Assembly: GCA_038247415.1 (NCBI GenBank)
Contig: JBBRUX010000001.1
Span: 64,001-128,000, forward strand
Direction: 5' to 3'
Length of the DNA: 64,000 nt
Origin: Chitinivibrionales bacterium
Lineage (GTDB): Bacteria; Fibrobacterota; Chitinivibrionia; Chitinivibrionales; WJKA01
Part shown: piece after piece, positions 41,848-50,308 of the stretch
Layout of the letters: each line of letters opens with the position of its first letter
How positions within the stretch are numbered: the stretch's first letter is position 1
The notes under the pieces: generated by a model
Databases searched by the model: none
Told to the model about the DNA's origin: nothing
The model's input: the letters and a program-made list of their open reading frames with translations, nothing else
Made by a program: the position numbers and the translations under genes

Positions 41848-42055
41848 ATTTTATGGCAAATTCAAGGTGTTCAGACATTGGCCTTTAGCATAAATAATAT
41901 TCAAGTCCCGTCATCAAAATTGAGGGATAATTAAGGGATTAATTCAAAAAAAGTTAGAAAAAGTATATTAAAGTAACATATCACATTTATCGTATCGGTA
42001 CCCCAGATTGCAGGAAAATTGAAACTTCTTTTAAATACCTCCAGGAAAAAGTCTT

Positions 42056-42553
42056 ATGCCGCTCCTTCAATGTAAAGCCCAACTGAGTGCACTCGGATTC
42101 TGGGCTATCCTCAGACTGCCACAGAGCGTAAGCTCAAAGCTTCCATCACGAGGCATGGTGCTTGTTGAGGGAACCATGAATGATATTCCCTTTACAGCAG
42201 TACTCGATCCCGACGGAAAAGGGAGCCACTGGTTTGCGGTAGATAAATCTTTACTTAAAGCAACAAAAGCGCATACTCGCGACAGCGTCTCCATCACCCT
42301 TGAACCATCTGATTTGTGGCCAGAACCAACGGTGCCGCACGATTTACAGAAAGCACTTACAGCAGATCCCCACCCACACGAAGTGTGGAACGATATCACG
42401 CCAATGGCTCGCTGGGACTGGATCCGCTGGATTGGGTCAACCAAGCAGCTAGAAACCCGCAACAAGAGAATAGAAGTAGCATGCTATTTTCTTAACGATA
42501 CAGAAACCCTATTCCCGGGCACAGACCTGAAATTGGGGTATAAAACGGTGTAA
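42056..42553 (+). pseudogene. DUF1905 / YdeI-OmpD-associated protein, probably C-terminally truncated
   Basis: LPSRGMV.VEG, PDGKGSHW, WPEP.VP.DL, ITPMARWDWIRWI, TR.KRIEVAC, then apparently unrelated sequence. Confidence 0.65.
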
Positions 42554-42558
42554 GGAAT

Positions 42559-42777
42559 TTAGGAGGGGTCAGGAGATCTTAATTTGTCGCTTAATTCTTG
42601 ACGACGGGTAGGGATGGCAAAATAAGATTGAGCTTGTGCAATTTCCAGTTTCCGCGGGTCACCGTTTTGGGCAATTAACTAGCATGCGAATCGTGAAAGT
42701 TGAAAATCCGGTACTTCTCGTTTCCCTCCTTTGCCCAATTCGATCATCTTGCCGGCGCCGGCAAAATGATATCTCAT
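42559..42777 (-). pseudogene. dinD: DinD (DNA-damage-inducible protein D) fragment
   Basis: Manual translation HFAGAGKMIELGKGGKREVPDFQLSRFAC*LIAQNGDPRKLEIAQAQSYFAIPTRRQE; TAG at 42679-42681. Confidence 0.85.
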
Positions 42778-42907
42778 TCATTCCAGCCTCCATTGTAACG
42801 AAAATAGATCTGTAGACTTCGTTTTCAAATTCAATTTACTTTCAATATCCTGTATAAGTAAATCTCTTTATGGTCACTCATCCTGAGCCTCTTCGGAAGT
42901 CTCATCA

Positions 42908-43060
42908 AGCCCTGTGGGAACATGCCTTTTCCACGGGGTTAATACCCGTGACTACCTTGGCACTGTGCTCAATGTGCTTCCCGCAAGAATGTCAAACAAT
43001 ATCGATGACCTGCTCCCCTGGAATAAAATCAAACCGCAGGACAATACTCTCCCGCCTTAA
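42908..43060 (+). mobile_element. IS66 family TnpC transposase C-terminal remnant
   Basis: Manual translation SPVGTCLFHGVNTRDYLGTVLNVLPARMSNNIDDLLPWNK, matching the IS66 C-terminal pattern TC..GV.P..YL..VL...I..LLPW. Confidence 0.75.
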
Positions 43061-43161
43061 TAATATACCGCCTGCGCTTTGTAATAGCGATACGACGATG
43101 CACGTGGGGTTACGTTTATTTACCAAGGGTATATTTGTTGTATGTAAACAAATTGTAAATC

Positions 43162-43791
43162 TTAAATATTTGGTTTACAACCTAATTCTAATGCTTCCCG
43201 GAAATCATTGTTACCCCTCCCATTTAGCAAAAGGTATATAAAATCCTTTATCACCTGCCTGTTGTGTCCAAGCAAGCAGTGCTCATTATTATCATTGTCC
43301 TCATATTGATAATGCAGTATCCCCTTAAATATCAATTGTTTTTCCGCTGTCCATGCACCAGTGATTTGTTCTCTAATGTATGAAAATATAGGTCCGCCAG
43401 ACATTCCTCCTGCCGTAGGGGACTTTCCCCAATTGTTTGCTGTAATTTGCCAAATAGTATTCCAATCAATTGCGCAATCATCATCTCTAGCTCGAGAAGG
43501 TGTTTTTACATATTGAGCATAAATTGGGTTTGAAACAATGAAATGTTTTTGACGAGCATTTGTTTGTAGACGAGCTGGAAAACCAAAAATTATTGCTGTT
43601 TCTGCTGTAGTTCGATTTGTGATAGGAGCACAAATCGGCAGCTCAATTGGTTTAAGATTTTCAAGTCCCTCAACTACCGCTGGGCTTGGAATAATGAGCC
43701 CTAAATCAAGTTCTACAGGATCCCATGGGTCATTCCTCCAACTATTTGAAACTTTGTATAAAATTGAGGAATAGTCTCCTGTGCGCCATTC
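43162..43791 (-). pseudogene. Trypsin-like serine protease, N-terminus lost
   Basis: Open frame without start codon containing DLGLI, IFGFP and GMSGGP. Confidence 0.65.
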
Positions 43792-44443
43792 TTAGATTTT
43801 TGTCTTTCTGTTTTCGGCGGCGGCTACCGTCGCGTTGGAGATTCCAGCGCGTATGAAAGAGTTTCCAAGCAATCTGGAATGCGATAAAAGTCTTACCAGT
43901 GCCAGTGGCGAGTGTTAAGAGAACGCGTTGCTTTTCCTTTGCAATCGCATCCATTGTGTTATTAGCCGCGATTTCTTGATAATAGCGAGCGGTCTTTGTG
44001 CCGCCCACATCCTCGAATGGCACCGAATCAAATTTGTCTTTCCAATCGTTCTGGGCGGCAAAGGTCTTGCTCCAAAGCTCTACAGGTGATGGGAAGGAAG
44101 ATATTGTTCCTTCTTTTCCTGTCTTCATTGAGATTTCGTAAATGTCTTTGCCATTTGTTGCGTAGGTAAAATTTATGCAGAGTTTTTCGGCATATCTCTT
44201 AGCCTGTGCAACACCTTCGCCCACCTGTTCTTGGTCGCTCTTTGCCTCGATTACTGCTACTTTTATATTTTTGTAAACGAGAATATAATCGGCGATCATG
44301 GGCTTTGCGCGACCCCCGACGACTTGAATTTTTCCGGCGGTGATATGGTATTCGCGAAGGACTTTAGAGCCTTCGACAACACCCCAGCCGGAGGCTTTGA
44401 GCGCGGGGTCGATGTGTTCGGCGCGGGTTTCGGCTTCGTTCAT
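43742..44443 (-). pseudogene. hsdR: Type I restriction subunit HsdR (EcoEI/EcoAI-like), truncated
   Basis: MNEAETRAEHIDPAL, ADYIL, IEAK, QAKRY, RYYQ, LATGTGKT; homology ends at RWNLQRDGSRR (~43815). Confidence 0.88.
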
Positions 44444-45291
44444 GATGCTGTTTCTGTGTTCTTGTCGTTTTTAAGTATCACTTTTCGTTTAATTTCAGGA
44501 AGCTGTTTGTAGTTCTCTTTTGTAGATACTTTTGTCCCAGATTTTACTTCTAATGCTTTTCGTGCGTCGCCAGCAATTGTGCCACCTTCGATTGCGGCAA
44601 CTTTATTCGTTAAAAACCCAAGGGCATTTTTCTTTTTCGCAATTTCGGTCGTTGATGCTTCACCCAACATGGTAAAAATCAATTCAAGGTCATTCATATG
44701 GTCACGAAGATTTTCTTTGGGATTATCGAGGGCTTTAAAATCTTTATATTCCGATGGTGTCATTCCAAAAGTTGCCTTGCTGATTTCTGCGGTTAGAATA
44801 GCGTATTCTTTTTGTTCTTTGACTCCACGTTTTTCCCATTCGTCTGTAAGTTCGTCGCGAACGGCAATGCCGCGCATGCGCTTTTCTATCCATTCGTTTG
44901 AATAGCCTTTGAGCTTATAGGTTTCCCGCATTCGCTTTGAGCCAAGTTCGGGATTTTCGATTTCTTCAAGCCGTTCATAACCCACTGTGGCAAGCCAGCG
45001 TTTAAACGGTTCGGCTTTGGGTGAAGGAATTGATTGAATAATACGCAACAACCCTTGTACATCCGAACAATCCTCTTGCCTTAATTTCCCGTCCAAAGAA
45101 GGTATTTTCAACCCGTGACAAATTGTCACGAGTTCAGGATCGCGTTTTTTAAGCTGCCGCCAATAAGCCTTTGAGTCTAAGCTGTCTGTAAGTATACCAC
45201 AGACGTCTGATATGGAAAAATACCATTTCTGATTGCCCTCGTCCCAAAGACGACGAATTTTTTTGCTTTCGAATAAAACGAGATTGTTCAT
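44440..45291 (-). CDS. Bro-N domain (phage antirepressor-like) protein
   Basis: IRRLWD..KWYFSISDV, YWRQLKKR, RIIQSIPSPKAEPFKRWLA, NLRDHMNDLELIF. Confidence 0.88.
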   Translation of the reverse strand: MNNLVLFESKKIRRLWDEGNQKWYFSISDVCGILTDSLDSKAYWRQLKKRDPELVTICHGLKIPSLDGKLRQEDCSDVQGLLRIIQSIPSPKAEPFKRWLATVGYERLEEIENPELGSKRMRETYKLKGYSNEWIEKRMRGIAVRDELTDEWEKRGVKEQKEYAILTAEISKATFGMTPSEYKDFKALDNPKENLRDHMNDLELIFTMLGEASTTEIAKKKNALGFLTNKVAAIEGGTIAGDARKALEVKSGTKVSTKENYKQLPEIKRKVILKNDKNTETAS

Positions 45292-46481
45292 GATAATTCT
45301 CCGGTGAAGGCTTGGTGGAGGAGGGGTTTTTTGAGTTCGGCGAGGGAGGAGAGTTTTTGTTGGTAGATGGATTGGACTTTTTGGGTTTCAAGTGAGAGAG
45401 CATCGAGTTTAGCAATTATCTTCTTTTGTTCTTGGATAGATGGAAAAAAAGTCGAAAATGCAAAAAGGTGTTCTCGATTAACTTTTGGCATCCCAGCTCT
45501 TGCAGATCCTTTTATTGCATAATCTGTAAAACTGTTTGATAGTAACAAATAATATAAAAAATCTTTATTTAATGTCAAAGCATTAGGTTTTAATGGGTAT
45601 ATATCCGCGCTACATATACCTGAAAAATCCGGTCGTGCAACTTTTATTAAGTATGGCCGAATTTTACTATACAGAACCATTGATTGATCGAATGCAAACT
45701 TTCCGGAAATAAGGTTCTCTTCTTGCGCTGTTTTTAAATCGATTAAAACCTCTGATTTACTAACAATATTAGCTCCTCCGACATGATATAAATCAAGGTG
45801 TTTTTTTTCTTTTGGATCAATCAACCTTGACGATATTTCACAAACCCCATCGAGTCTTTTTTCCTTCCAATCTTTCCCCGGATTTGCAAACACGCTATCC
45901 AGATAGCCCTCAAACACCTCCCTCGCATTCGCCAAATTCTTCTCCGCAATTTCCTTTGCGCGGGCGATGCCGGAAAATGCTTCGTCGAGAATGGCGACGA
46001 TGCGTTTTTGTTCGGGGAGTGATTTTGAAAAGGTAACGGTAAGATTTTCCCATTTAGTTTTGTTAATAATTGGCAAAGTTGCTTGAGCACCTTTCCCCTC
46101 CAAAATTACTTTATCTTGAAAGTCCTTTGAAGTCATTGCATAGTAAAAAAATTTAGTTTCATAACCTTTTTTTAAAGTAAGCGTATTGATTTGCTGATTA
46201 CAGGATACACCTTGTTCGGAAAAGCCCACGTTACCAATAGTTGCGCCAATGTAAACCATAAATATTGAACCATTTTCAACTCTTCTTCCTTTCTTCAGAC
46301 CTATCTCACTTAAACCTTCGTTATCATAACGCAAATCACCCGCCTTGGTAAAGTCTATGTCTGCGGGCTTAATAAATGGAATAAAACTACTGTAGTTTTC
46401 TTTTTCCGATGTTTTAGGTGTTGTTCCCGTTTGAGTTATTCCGAGTTCAATCATTTTTTTTACTTCCCAACCCTCCTTCAT
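45288..46481 (-). CDS. hsdS: Type I RM specificity subunit
   Basis: Two TRDs, LPEQKRIVAILD and IQEQKKII conserved helices, LLHQAFTGEL end. Confidence 0.92.
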   Translation of the reverse strand: MKEGWEVKKMIELGITQTGTTPKTSEKENYSSFIPFIKPADIDFTKAGDLRYDNEGLSEIGLKKGRRVENGSIFMVYIGATIGNVGFSEQGVSCNQQINTLTLKKGYETKFFYYAMTSKDFQDKVILEGKGAQATLPIINKTKWENLTVTFSKSLPEQKRIVAILDEAFSGIARAKEIAEKNLANAREVFEGYLDSVFANPGKDWKEKRLDGVCEISSRLIDPKEKKHLDLYHVGGANIVSKSEVLIDLKTAQEENLISGKFAFDQSMVLYSKIRPYLIKVARPDFSGICSADIYPLKPNALTLNKDFLYYLLLSNSFTDYAIKGSARAGMPKVNREHLFAFSTFFPSIQEQKKIIAKLDALSLETQKVQSIYQQKLSSLAELKKPLLHQAFTGELS

Positions 46482-47362
46482 AATAATTCCTTCAGCTTAT
46501 CAACAATAGTCACCGAAGCTTTGTCCAATCTGGAAAAAGCAAACCACCGTTTACCAAGATCTTTAAGCGATGCTCCAATATGATAAACCTCTGTATCATC
46601 TATGATTAAAAAGCGATCATGAGCTTTGTTAAATTCTCGAATCATAACTGACTGATATTGTTCGTTATATTTTTGTGCATCCAGTTCAAGTTTCTTTGAA
46701 ATATTCTTTGTCAAAATCGTTAAGGAAACATCTTTTCTTATTTTACAAAAAAGAACAAGCACACTTTCATCAACATAGTTATCAATAAGAACTATTGACT
46801 TTTTCGCAGTATTGATAAGATTGTTTATCAATACATAAGCGTCAAAGACCTGTCCATCAAAGAAAACCCCCTGTTTTGGCTGAATAGCCCTTGTTTCAAT
46901 AGCGTTCAGAACATTGTTAAACTTTTTATCCGTTTCTATTTGTTTTATTTCAAGAGTATCGAGTCGTTGAAATATTCGTGCGTTAGTTAAGATAAGTCGG
47001 CGCATGGCGACAAAAGCATTCATGATCTGTATGCTCACACTGATTGCAACACTACTTCTAAGCACCGAAGAAAGCATAGCAACTCCCTGCTCAGTGAAAG
47101 CATAGGGAGGTTTTCTCAATCCCATTTTATCTGAATTGGAAGTCACAATTTGTGACTTCCAATTATTAAACTCTTCAATTGTCAGTTGAAACATGAACTC
47201 TTCTGGAAAGCGTTCGCTATTTCATTTGACAGCTTGGTTAAGGATCTTTGTTTCAACGCTGTATAAAGAGGCAATTTCTCTATCAAGAATAACCTGCCGA
47301 CCTCTAATATTTAAAATGTTTGCTTGAACTCTTTCGGTAGTTATTAATTCGCTTTTAGACAT
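46478..47362 (-). pseudogene. ORF6N domain protein with in-frame nonsense codon
   Basis: MSKSELIT...[41 protein letters not shown]...PYAFTEQGVAMLSSVL; TGA at 47222-47224 in place of Arg; C-terminal LIDNY / HDRFLIID domain. Confidence 0.88.
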
Positions 47363-48813
47363 ATCAGTTCCTCTATTTTTTTCAAAATCTCGGAACTCTC
47401 TTCATCCAAAGCCTTCATTTCCTTCAGAATCTTTTCTGGTGAGCGTAATGCGGCTTCTTCCTTCTTGTTTGGATTCTTAGCACTAAGATCAAAAGTGGCT
47501 TGATCAATTTTCTTTATACCTACTGTCCAAGAATTTGCACTCTCAGCAAACGTTTTCTGTAGCTTTACAAATTCAGCCAAATCATTCTCATTCAGCGGAT
47601 TGGTCTTCCCTAAATTTCTGTCAAGATTAAGCTGGTAATACCAGACCTTCTTTGTGGGTTTACCCTTTTCAAAAAACAGCACAACAGTCTTTACACCTGC
47701 ACCGGTAAAAACACCGCCCGGCAAATCAAGTACCGTATGTAAATCACAACTTTCAAGAAGCATTTTTCGCAACAAAACAGACGCATTATCGGTGTTTGAT
47801 AGAAAAGTATTCTTTATGACTATTCCCGCACGGCCACCGGCGCGCAAAATCTTTATGTAGTGCTGCAGGAAAAGAAAGGCGGTTTCTCCAGTCTTAATAG
47901 GGAAATTTTGTTGTACTTCGGAGCGTTCTTTGCCACCGAAGGGTGGATTGGTCAAGACAATATCATAGCGATCTTTTTCCTGAATATCGGCAAGGTTTTC
48001 TGATAATGTATTCGTGTGAATAATATTCGGTGCTTCAACGCCATGCAGAATCATGTTCATGGTGCCGATGATGTAGGCGAGAGACTTTTTTTCCTTGCCG
48101 TAGAAGGTCTTCTTTTGTAAAACCTCCATATCTTTTGTCTTCAGATTTTTTCCAGTTTTGAGATATTCAAAGGCCTCGCACAGAAATCCTTCCGAACCGA
48201 CCGCACCGTCGTAGATCGTTTCACCAATCTGGGGGTCTACCACTTTGACAATGGTTTTAATGAGCGTGCGGGAGGTGTAGTATTCGCCACCGTTGCGGCC
48301 AGCATTGCCCATGTTCTGAATTTTTGCTTCATACAAATGAGACATCTTATGCTTTTCCGCATGTGACCGAAAGCGAAGTTCATCAATAAGATTTATCACT
48401 TCACGAAGATTGTACCCGCTCTGTATCTTGTTTTTCAGTTCGCTAAATATTTCGCCTATTTTGTAAACGATCGTATCGGGGCTTTCGGCGTCGGTCTCGA
48501 ATTTCTTTAGGTAGGGAAAAAGCTTGTGGTCTACAAAATCCTTGAGATCATCGCCGGTTAAGGGTTTATGGTGATCAAGCTTGCCGTCTTTCTCTTTGGG
48601 CATTGCCCATTTTTCCCAGCGGTATTGGGTCTCAATTATTGTGGAATATGGTTTCCCTGAAAGTTCCGCCGCCGTTTGCTTGTCCTTTTCAAAATCGTCA
48701 AGATATTTGAGAAAGAGAATCCATGAGGTTTGTTCCACGTAGTCAAGTTCACTGCTGCATCCGGCGTCTTTGTGAAGGATGTCGTCGATATTTTTGAAAG
48801 TTTGTTCGAACAT
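47344..48813 (-). CDS. hsdM: Type I RM N6-adenine methyltransferase
   Basis: MFEQTFKNIDDIL..DAGC..ELDY, GEYYT, YDGAVGS, NPPF, GAGVKT. Confidence 0.93.
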   Translation of the reverse strand: MFEQTFKNIDDILHKDAGCSSELDYVEQTSWILFLKYLDDFEKDKQTAAELSGKPYSTIIETQYRWEKWAMPKEKDGKLDHHKPLTGDDLKDFVDHKLFPYLKKFETDAESPDTIVYKIGEIFSELKNKIQSGYNLREVINLIDELRFRSHAEKHKMSHLYEAKIQNMGNAGRNGGEYYTSRTLIKTIVKVVDPQIGETIYDGAVGSEGFLCEAFEYLKTGKNLKTKDMEVLQKKTFYGKEKKSLAYIIGTMNMILHGVEAPNIIHTNTLSENLADIQEKDRYDIVLTNPPFGGKERSEVQQNFPIKTGETAFLFLQHYIKILRAGGRAGIVIKNTFLSNTDNASVLLRKMLLESCDLHTVLDLPGGVFTGAGVKTVVLFFEKGKPTKKVWYYQLNLDRNLGKTNPLNENDLAEFVKLQKTFAESANSWTVGIKKIDQATFDLSAKNPNKKEEAALRSPEKILKEMKALDEESSEILKKIEELICLKAN

Positions 48814-48858: not shown

Positions 48859-49572
48859 TCAATCGTTTACCGGCATTTGATCCCATACTCTGTTTTCAAG
48901 CACTCGACCATTCTCTTTTTTCCGAACCCCGCCCCACTGCTTGAAGAAGAAAGGTGTATTGGTTTTGATGCAAACATCTCGAATAGAAGTAACCCATTCC
49001 TTTTTCATTGGCCTTGCGCCTGGCCCGGACTCACCACCAACGATTACCCAATCAATACCAGAAAGGTTTAGCCCTGCAATTGGGCCAATAAGCGGCTCGA
49101 TTGATAGGAATTTTGTATGAGCACCCACCAGACGCAAATCTTCAATCCGTGAACGTGTTGCGGTATGCTCGACGGTAACGCCTTGCCAGATATTGGGTGT
49201 CCATTTGATTTTCTTTGATAATTTCAGCAATCTTTCAGAACGCTTGGTAAGGACCTGAAAAGTGTGCCACCGTGCTTTGTTCATAACAGAAAAGAGCTTC
49301 AGTATTTGTTCGTCTGAAATGTCCTCGTGAAAGGTGTCACTCATGGAATTCACAAAAATCATCCGTGATTTTTTCCATGAGAGCGGTTTCTCCAAGAGGT
49401 GTTCATGAAACACCGGAGAAAAACCTAATTGATATGCCTCTGTGCCCATTTCTTGAAGGCGCTTGGCCATACGTTCCGCATAGCAGTTCAGGCATCCGGC
49501 AGAATGCTTTGTGCAGCCGGTAATTGGATTCCAGGCTGTTTCGGTCCATTCGATTCGTGTGCTATGTGCCAT
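48859..49572 (-). CDS. DUF5131 / phage Gp37-Gp68 three-Cys-motif protein (radical-SAM-like)
   Basis: IEWT..WNP.TGC, CTKHSAGCLNCYA, FVNSMSD.FH, QVLTKR, SIEPLIG, WVIVGGESG, FFFKQWG. Confidence 0.9.
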   Translation of the reverse strand: MAHSTRIEWTETAWNPITGCTKHSAGCLNCYAERMAKRLQEMGTEAYQLGFSPVFHEHLLEKPLSWKKSRMIFVNSMSDTFHEDISDEQILKLFSVMNKARWHTFQVLTKRSERLLKLSKKIKWTPNIWQGVTVEHTATRSRIEDLRLVGAHTKFLSIEPLIGPIAGLNLSGIDWVIVGGESGPGARPMKKEWVTSIRDVCIKTNTPFFFKQWGGVRKKENGRVLENRVWDQMPVND

Positions 49573-49579
49573 AATACCC

Positions 49580-50308
49580 TCTATTTCTTATGCTGTATTG
49601 TTACTCTGATTGTATCATCGTTCAGATAAAATGCACCTGCACGTCTATTATTTTCTGCTCCTAAAAATCTGCTCGTGTAAGCTTGATGTAGGCTGAGAAT
49701 TCTGGCAACTCGATAAAGCGCGCAATGAATGCGGAAGAAATGAAGAATAAGAAGTCGGTGCGTTCTAAGCTAACAATTTGTGAGAATATTTCCCTTGTCA
49801 CATGTTTAATACCGTACTGGTCAAGAAACATGAATTGAGGCGCTTTAGCAAATTCTTTGAATTGCGGCTGCAAAATCTTGAAGAGGTTCTGAAAATCCTT
49901 ATCTGTGTGAAGCAATTTGAAGCAACAGTTTGGGTTATCCTTACTCGGGCATGTATAGCCAGTACCAGAATCGTGTTTGCAGTTTTCTAATGTAGCGTTG
50001 CAGCATTCAGAAAGTCGCTTCGCTTTGCGCTTTCTTGCTTCATTGAGAACAACAAGGACAGGCATATTTCTCTTCACAATTTCATCGCAATACAACTTGA
50101 TTTCGTCAAGAATTATAATCGGGCTGCCGGCTGCGCCATCCTTATCTGCACCAGCGCCAGCAAACAAATCATAAATAGCAAGTTTCTGCCATATTCTATT
50201 GTGATCCTTTATAAAAACGGGCAGCCAGTTCCTAAGATATTGCCGCAATATCTCAAGCTTAATCAATGTGCCTTCATCGAAGGATTTTTTATGCATGTCT
50301 GCTGGCAT
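49580..50308 (-). pseudogene. tcmP: Three-Cys-motif partner protein TcmP, apparently with an internal deletion
   Basis: T..KLEIL..YL..W, DLFAGAG, GSP, FLDQYG; stops at 49661 after 215 aa; short residual frame RRAGAFYL...KK* follows. Confidence 0.72.

Follow-up and report, generated by a model that had tools for sequence, protein, structure and literature searches.

A conserved self-complementary DNA element within the coding sequences of ORF6N, Bro-N, DinD and RhuM genes

Coding palindromes at a decaying restriction-modification locus

We analysed a window of 64,000 nucleotides from the genome of a Chitinivibrionales bacterium (assembly GCA_038247415.1, contig JBBRUX010000001.1, positions 64,001 to 128,000), in which a type I restriction-modification locus carries three long palindromes, each lying within a coding sequence. 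Positions given below are those of the window unless another contig or locus is named. The palindromes were found in the minus-strand coding sequences of an ORF6N-family gene (47134-47164; 15+1+15 nt, perfect), a Bro-N domain gene (45110-45134; 12+1+12 nt, one T:G mismatch) and a DinD-type gene remnant (42743-42770; 14+14 nt, one T:G mismatch). These coordinates, sizes and mismatches, the cores of the Bro-N and ORF6N palindromes (GTGACAAATTGTCAC and GTCACAATTTGTGAC on the plus strand) and the placement of the elements in the N-terminal parts of the proteins confirm the description in an earlier note on this DNA. What that note had taken for a dinD gene is a fragment of 72 codons with an in-frame TAG.

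The host genes sit among the remains of an hsd locus. The methylase gene hsdM (47344-48813) was recognized by Pfam N6_Mtase (6e-60) together with HsdM_N. The ORF6N-family gene (46478-47362) matches Pfam ORF6N (PF10543; 4.7e-32, 110.6 bits against a cut-off of 27.8, over residues 15-100 of the read-through) and the PADLOC candidate PDC-S05 (3e-120). The specificity subunit gene hsdS (45288-46481) matches Pfam Methylase_S in two stretches (4.2e-27). Between hsdS and a remnant of hsdR lies the Bro-N domain gene (44440-45291), which is intact, encodes 283 aa and matches Pfam Bro-N (PF02498; 1.5e-9, 38.8 bits against a cut-off of 25.6) and the PADLOC candidate PDC-S13 (3.9e-117). The hsdR remnant (43742-44443 in the list of open reading frames) retains only the first 233 codons, with the N-terminal parts of Pfam HSDR_N and ResIII. 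The dinD-like remnant of the Bro-N family (42559-42777) matches the NCBIfam DinD profile NF008573 (E 7e-29) with 101 bits against a cut-off of 242, the match being limited to profile positions 63-126, and it has no Pfam match.

The frame of the ORF6N gene is broken by an in-frame TGA (47222-47224) at a position where relatives have a conserved Arg, and this TGA is also present in contigs of three public runs. In the dinD remnant, the in-frame TAG (42679-42681) replaces the Tyr of the RYACY motif, and the upstream half of the gene is missing. The restriction-modification locus is decaying, and two of the three host genes are dead, with palindromes that are perfect or nearly so. Stop codons recur in the best-conserved motifs of these families. 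The TGA of the ORF6N gene falls on the Arg of AVKRN, an ORF6N paralogue on another contig (C3, ~44750, locus L026) has a TAG five codons before the position of that Arg, and two DinD pseudogenes elsewhere (L177 and L178) have stops at the Cys or Tyr of RYACY. Such recurrent stops may reflect repeated inactivation of costly genes.

On the coding strand, the ORF6N palindrome reads AAT TGG AAG TCA CAA ATT GTG ACT TCC AAT T, encoding N-W-K-S-Q-I-V-T-S-N, and spans residues 67-77 of the 294-codon read-through. The Bro-N palindrome reads (GA)A CTC GTG ACA ATT TGT CAC GGG TT(G), encoding E-L-V-T-I-C-H-G-L, and spans residues 53-61 of 283. Both lie inside the N-terminal DNA-binding domain. The Bro-N palindrome is codon-aligned, so that the codon of Val (GTG) is the partner of that of His (CAC), and the codon of Thr (ACA) that of Cys (TGT). 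The arms of the DinD-type palindrome, (T)AT CAT TTT GCC GGC and GCC GGC AAG ATG AT(C), encode Y-H-F-A-G-A-G-K-M-I at about positions 63-72 of the DinD profile, likewise within the N-terminal DNA-binding domain. When folded as single-stranded DNA (ssDNA), the ORF6N, Bro-N and DinD-type palindromes gave -14, -8.9 and -9.4 kcal/mol, with z-scores of -8.2, -4.4 and -3.3, respectively, and loops of 3-4 nt. In two runs (X1 and X2), Logan contigs terminate precisely at 45106-45135 and 47135-47164. These ends at the Bro-N and ORF6N palindromes are probably an artefact of k=31 assembly at self-complementary words, and not biology.

Conservation, covariation and character of the element

A first-order Markov simulation predicted 0.33 palindromes per 64 kb with an arm of at least 12 and 0.013 with an arm of at least 15, and by the same rule five palindromes were observed in the window. 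In the whole genome (3.84 Mb), 73 such palindromes were counted, of which many look like terminators, and the probability that three of the 73 fall within 4.4 kb anywhere in the genome is about 0.20. The cluster itself is therefore weak evidence, and we dropped it as an argument; the comparison with homologues is decisive. This comparison showed that the palindrome is a property of each gene family everywhere, and not of a system at this locus, as had been proposed. The three elements lie close together because related accessory genes (PDC-S05 and PDC-S13) gather in hsd loci. In the same genome, a palindrome was found at the homologous spot in two more ORF6N copies, in another Bro-N gene and in a DinD gene.

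The ORF6N sample comprised 30 loci from relatives (18 of 41 genomes matched) and 80 loci from many bacterial phyla and archaea, the latter being the best 80 of 593 stretches confirmed among 603 candidates. Segments were cut between the FMFQLT and AFTEQG motifs, which gave 97 segments from 94 of the 110 loci, and 93 segments remained after removal of identical DNA and of rows with N or more than one stop. The other three samples represent one phylum plus E. coli: the Bro-N subfamily (65 of 296 genomes matched, 31 segments analysed), DinD (98 of 296 genomes matched in a tally that includes G253, a genome flagged as unpublished that enters no other result; 30 segments) and RhuM (97 of 151 genomes matched, 30 matches looked at). 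In the first three families we measured the best arm with at most one mismatch. The median arm was 13 in ORF6N (at least 11 in 80 of 93 segments and shorter in 13), 12 in the Bro-N subfamily (at least 11 in 25 of 31) and 14.5 in DinD (at least 12 in 26 of 30). The earlier note had suggested a look at RhuM genes, and the palindrome is present there too: in 26 of 30 matches, a palindrome with an arm of at least 10 starts the match to the Pfam RhuM profile, directly before a conserved A-D-G-K, and encodes peptides such as A-T-V-A-K-Y-A-T-V or S-V-V-K-D-Y-L-T-T-A (loci L187-L216). Across the four families, the palindrome measures 25-31 bp and occupies the same codons in nearly all members. The RhuM copy of this genome, with an in-frame TAG, lies on the contig of the window but outside it (G000, C1:18775-19413).

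We compared the arms with a null model in which synonymous codons were shuffled, with codon frequencies drawn from the segments themselves, a choice in favour of the null. Under this null, the best arms averaged 7.1 in ORF6N, 7.2 in Bro-N and 7.6 in DinD. The observed arms exceeded it at p<=0.05 in 76 of 93 ORF6N, 23 of 31 Bro-N and 25 of 30 DinD segments, and at p<=0.005 in 47, 12 and 13 segments, respectively. Judged by these sequences, the amino acids alone fail to account for the palindromes, as the synonymous null does not reach the arms.

Pairs were counted in centre-anchored alignments of rows preselected for an arm of at least 10, namely 81 distinct stretches from the 82 of 93 ORF6N rows that passed, 25 of 31 Bro-N rows, and 19 distinct DinD stretches from the 26 passing rows out of 30, plus the window's own. 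In ORF6N, 90.3% of cells were paired as compared with 73.9% after shuffling and 28-43% when one arm was slid by 1-3 columns, and 13 of 15 pairs showed two-sided change. The corresponding values were 91.4%, 71.9%, 25-43% and 10 of 14 pairs in Bro-N, and 95.3%, 85.3%, 31-58% and 9 of 15 pairs in DinD. In all three families, the observed pairing lay above that of each of 500 shuffles. The dyad symmetry that the earlier note had proposed to look for in homologues is thus kept through two-sided changes and beyond what the amino acids need, by the counts as well as by the synonymous null. Synonymous sites are tied to replacements in the other arm: Ser TCA occurs with Val GTG and Ser TCG with Ala GCG, and likewise His CAT with Met ATG and His CAC with Val GTG. 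Residue pairs with complementary codons in Bro-N and DinD include Val GTG/His CAC, Val GTT/Asn AAC, Ser TCG/Arg CGA and Gly GGT/Thr ACC, as well as Leu CTG/Gln CAG, Pro CCC/Gly GGG and Pro CCT/Arg AGG. Since every arm position has its partner in the opposite arm, replacements in the encoded peptide come in pairs.

The element also occurs in two reading frames. Among the ORF6N segments, 77 carry it in one phase and 5 in another, frequencies that are biased because the scan was seeded with the AFTExGVAML pattern. Three identical 17-mers are common to both phases and are read as S-Q-I-V-T in one and as L-V-T-N-C-D in the other. In the genome of the window, two ORF6N paralogues carry the identical 17-mer GGTCACACATTGTGACC in different frames, encoding L-V-T-H-C-D-R and R-S-H-I-V-T-S. 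As far as can be read from these alignments, what is inherited is the self-complementarity of the DNA over about 13-15 bp per arm, and neither its sequence nor its peptide. That the palindromes are a by-product of conserved amino acids, or chance, would fit the partly conserved peptide (Gln in ORF6N; His-Phe and Lys-Met in DinD) and the clustering within 4.4 kb taken alone (P ~0.2). However, the synonymous null fails, replacements are coupled to synonymous changes, one and the same DNA serves two frames and non-coding copies are palindromic as well. We consider this explanation practically negligible.

Pairing extends 13-15 positions from the centre in ORF6N, Bro-N and DinD and then falls to the background level. 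Mismatches within the stem comprise 26 G:T or T:G, 23 A:C or C:A and 31 others, with no wobble bias on the coding strand. A structured RNA element was rejected, since G:U is no commoner than A:C on the transcribed strand (26 vs 23) and there is no Rfam match. A permissive Rfam search of 42000-48000 gave only two chance-level matches, none near its gathering score; one of them, SECIS_5 at 47354-47410 (20 bits against a gathering score of 50), lies upstream of the ORF6N gene and away from its TGA, and was dismissed. All odd palindromes counted, 65 in ORF6N and 17 in Bro-N, have A or T as the centre base and none has G or C, whichever of the two reading frames is used. An intrinsic terminator was likewise rejected, as no T run follows any of the three palindromes on either strand by inspection of the sequence; the terminator-like palindromes of the window lie elsewhere.

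The distribution of the core bears on two further candidates. The core GTSACANNNTGTSAC has four copies in 3.84 Mb, all four inside ORF6N or Bro-N genes, and the DinD-type motif was found, in 5 genomes, at dinD loci only. A dispersed repeat of the REP or MITE-like kind was therefore rejected. The only other occurrence of TCACAANTTGTGA in the genome (C2:24927) lies inside an unrelated gene and was taken as chance. The earlier note had also considered a self-operator. Here this is taken as a duplex palindrome to which the encoded protein would bind as a dimer, or which a common regulator would bind. The dyad symmetry with a centre of 1-3 bp, the DNA-binding domains of the proteins and the extra copies near some promoters (L113, L136 and L149) speak for such a site. 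However, no further copies of the core motif were found in the genome, the sequence is free to vary while arms of 13-15 bp stay symmetric, and neighbouring copies in one locus differ, each being symmetric in itself. Binding by one protein would keep the half-sites close to a common consensus, and the sites share none, for which reason the operator of a dimeric regulator was rejected. A self-operator is thus disfavoured and highly unlikely.

Copies outside intact genes and the encoded segment

The palindrome is independent of coding. Broken genes retain it, including two in the window. One homologue (L182) has a perfect palindrome with 17-nt arms in which an in-frame TAG in one arm pairs with a CTA Leu codon in the other, and in another (L094) a nonsense change from TGG to TAG adds a 16th pair. 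In addition, non-coding orphan palindromes, each internally complementary, lie beside the genes in several lineages. One genus has two of them immediately past the dinD stop. Pairs were also found upstream of dinD in the genome G018, past the stop in the genome G287 and upstream of an ORF6N gene (L022), and single copies upstream of Bro-N genes (L113 and L136), so that orphans occur in either direction from the gene. The sequence of an orphan is a variant that differs from the resident in-gene copy. In six sister species (L151, L153, L154, L155, L164 and L165), the orphans lie 1 and 36 bases past the dinD stop; their cores have been exchanged while the outer arms were kept, and the in-gene dinD copy carries one or the other of these cores, varying by species. 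By inspection of the sequence, a T-rich run follows the distal orphan. Orphans are absent at many loci, and none was found in the 64-kb window. Tandem palindrome modules in frame were found at 12 of 94 ORF6N loci (L006, L007, L019, L022, L041, L048, L051, L053, L074, L080, L097 and L099), as two hairpins 40-90 bases apart, each self-complementary.

These copies could be taken to suggest programmed diversification, in which in-gene, tandem and orphan hairpins would form a cassette store whose cores are exchanged by template switching, with several residues of a putative DNA-contacting region changed at a time. The tandem in-frame modules would fit this, as would the orphans that differ from the resident copy and the genus in which the same three cores occur in the gene or in the orphans depending on the species, with the cores of the two orphans swapped. 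The palindrome segment is also the least conserved part of the ORF6N domain. However, exchange could have run in either direction, and the orphans could be by-products or terminators. The window and many other loci lack orphans, the Bro-N and DinD segments are no more variable than their flanks, and contigs of public runs show no variation within populations. We regard programmed diversification as quite improbable. Also improbable is the bolder form of this reading, a built-in diversification device of defence-associated DNA-binding domains that needs no enzyme, in which these copies would exchange cores by template switching and one replication slip would rewrite several residues of a putative DNA-contacting segment and could retarget the protein.

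The earlier note described the encoded peptide as strongly variable between homologues. This holds for ORF6N and does not hold for Bro-N and DinD, in which the variability of the segment is about that of the flanking sequence. In DinD, the arms diverge by 0.165 as compared with 0.26 in the flanks, which is about the level of the first and second codon positions of the flanks, and hypervariable arms were rejected on the ground that arm divergence does not exceed that of the flanks in DinD or Bro-N.

In the AlphaFold model of the Bro-N protein (pLDDT 79.7), the stretch encoded by the palindrome takes in the coil that follows helix 40-50 and the beginning of strand 58-64, whose pairing partner is strand 70-76. 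The corresponding stretch of the ORF6N model (pLDDT 81.7) consists of a helix end and of the coil with the lowest confidence, ahead of the last strand and helix. In each family, the palindrome occupies the segment that immediately precedes the final strand-plus-helix of the domain, a shared position that is approximate. The N-terminal domain of DinD is itself a Pfam Bro-N domain (41.3 and 39.6 bits in two DinD proteins, cut-off 25.6). Comparison of Bro-N with ORF6N and with DinD by hhalign was not significant (probability <1%), Foldseek with the Bro-N model returned nothing at E <= 0.001, and a PDB sequence search with the ORF6N profile gave no match. For the ORF6N model, a weak resemblance to the Ski/Dachshund and winged-helix folds of DNA-binding proteins was found. 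The order of helices and strands common to the ORF6N and Bro-N models was recognized by eye only, and homology between them is not demonstrated.

The dinD gene of E. coli K-12 (L217, 5790-6006) carries a palindrome with 15-nt arms and one mismatch at D-D-H-F-E-E-I-L-D-M-V-K. A 201-base query from K-12 had matches in 4,636 E. coli genomes: 1,896 of them matched over 80% or more of its length, and 2,740 over its last 44 bases only. Two alleles of the latter class were fetched (L218 and L220), and they have 9 outer pairs per arm and an unpaired centre of 10 nt, so that among these alleles the full palindrome is found only in the K-12 type. The E. coli gene thereby falls into two alleles, which have identical codons 1-10 and are identical again from about codon 83, with strong divergence over the entire Bro-N domain and sharp boundaries.

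The region between the dinD remnant and the hsdR stump (42870-43740) contains short unrelated open frames and looks rearranged. An 80-aa frame within it (43162-43404) has no Pfam match, and SGGPIF and LLPWN motifs presumably hint at fragments of a protease and a transposase. Upstream of hsdM, a DUF5131 gene (48859-49572) and its neighbour (49661-50308) correspond to the PADLOC candidate pairs PDC-M30/PDC-M41. The neighbour contains a palindrome with 11-nt arms (50233-50255), which is at chance level.

Proposed template switching, possible selection and known systems

In the reading that we favour, a hairpin-forming element belongs to the coding sequence of ORF6N, Bro-N (including DinD) and RhuM genes, and the palindromes of the locus are its local copies. 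Intrastrand template switching at such a quasi-palindrome, a replication error in which one arm serves as the template for the other, would be the main process that keeps it symmetric. We give this reading a probability of about 0.5. A template switch would erase a new mismatch or double it, outpacing further mutations, and selection at the protein level would merely filter the surviving variants, with the element itself having no dedicated function. Switching between neighbouring hairpins would yield in-frame tandem duplicates, orphan copies and swapped cores. Template switching would also account for the two-sided changes, the perfection in dead genes and in non-coding copies, the stops made by pairing, and the absence of a strand bias. 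The stops within the arms of L094 and L182 and the core swaps between neighbours are suggestive of templated change only.

Several points weigh against this reading. No templated event was seen directly, and public runs contained no variants of the palindrome, although only contigs were available and no RNA run was among those listed, and in contigs rare variants and inversions of the centre are invisible. A centre restricted to A or T in two frames is not predicted by a pure copying drive and is a hint of selection acting on the centre or the loop. All families have arms of similar length (13-15), and a presence of about 80-87% over very deep divergence may require more than mutational bias. 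The slow evolution of the arms (0.165 vs 0.26 in DinD) fits selection for pairing equally well. The post-dinD orphans, to judge from their sequence, may be terminators under ordinary selection. In addition, centre anchoring and the preselection of arms bias the pair counts towards structure, the homologues are related to one another, and a single genus supplies many of the DinD rows.

In an alternative reading, the hairpin is functional and selected, and is kept by compensatory evolution. It would act as ssDNA or a cruciform when DNA is replicated, repaired or transferred, or would be recognized by the very domain that it encodes. Near-universal presence with similar arm lengths in four families, the A or T centre in two reading frames, the retention of orphans beside the genes in at least four lineages and arm sites that evolve more slowly than flanking third codon positions would all be expected of such a hairpin. 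Baculovirus BRO proteins have been reported to bind single-stranded DNA. However, the element has no common partner gene and no Rfam family match, and the occurrence of the families in bacteria and archaea makes a host-specific reader unlikely. Palindromes have been perfected even at the cost of stop codons, and the 2,740 of 4,636 E. coli genomes whose allele is diverged over this stretch argue against indispensability. A selected hairpin is a serious competitor of the favoured reading, and we would call it somewhat unlikely.

The element resembles some known systems in part. Rickettsia palindromic elements and other small palindromic repeats of this kind are mobile, inserted in frame and dispersed in many copies per genome. 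Like them, the element described here is palindromic DNA tolerated in frame at permissive sites of a protein; unlike them, it has no genome-wide copies and a fixed position within a family. Rfam-type stem-loops share the retention of pairing by compensatory changes while the sequence varies, but here there is no G:U excess, and non-coding copies lie in either direction from the gene. The host genes match PADLOC PDC-S05 (ORF6N type) and PDC-S13 (Bro-N/DinD type) strongly and sit among hsdM, hsdS and hsdR. These entries describe proteins (candidate defence), and the portion of the library text that we saw contains no DNA element of the coding sequence.

Template switching between short inverted repeats homogenizes the arms and inverts spacers in yeast coding genes (Abraham and Hazkani-Covo 2021, PMC8604942), and quasi-palindromes are described as template-switch hotspots in E. 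coli (Klaric, Perr and Lovett 2020, PMC7202029). The sites described there and the element described here are both short inverted repeats in genes that are able to fold. Changes that make the arms more complementary and replace several neighbouring residues at once are described there and suggested here. A spacer inversion of the kind described there would interconvert the two commonest centres found here, AAT and ATT. The events described there are sporadic, with the repeats scattered within one species, whereas the element has a fixed codon position in families across phyla and its switching events are inferred. For hairworm mitochondria, perfect inverted repeats have been described in functional protein-coding genes (2019, PMC6649704). 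Those repeats are similar in being a compromise between protein sequence and DNA pairing. They are described there as up to 284 bp long, numerous, genome-specific and located in conserved respiratory genes (PMC6649704), whereas we found a single element of 25-31 bp that travels with a domain family in bacteria and archaea. In the literature on ORF6N, Bro-N, RhuM, DinD and KilA-N and on coding palindromes, as judged from abstracts and listings, we found no published description of the element.

K-12 dinD with the element and the common natural allele largely without it would allow the drive, hairpin and cassette explanations to be tested directly. For annotation, assemblers break contigs exactly at these palindromes, which is relevant to fragmented assemblies of such loci. 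The finding also bears on how "positive selection" and parallel change are read in such domains, and on the poorly understood accessory genes of restriction-modification loci. If the interpretation is true, residues in these proteins would covary through reverse-complement codons, and a change of frame would have left the DNA intact and replaced the peptide. Nucleic-acid structure would then dictate part of a protein sequence over a very wide range of life.

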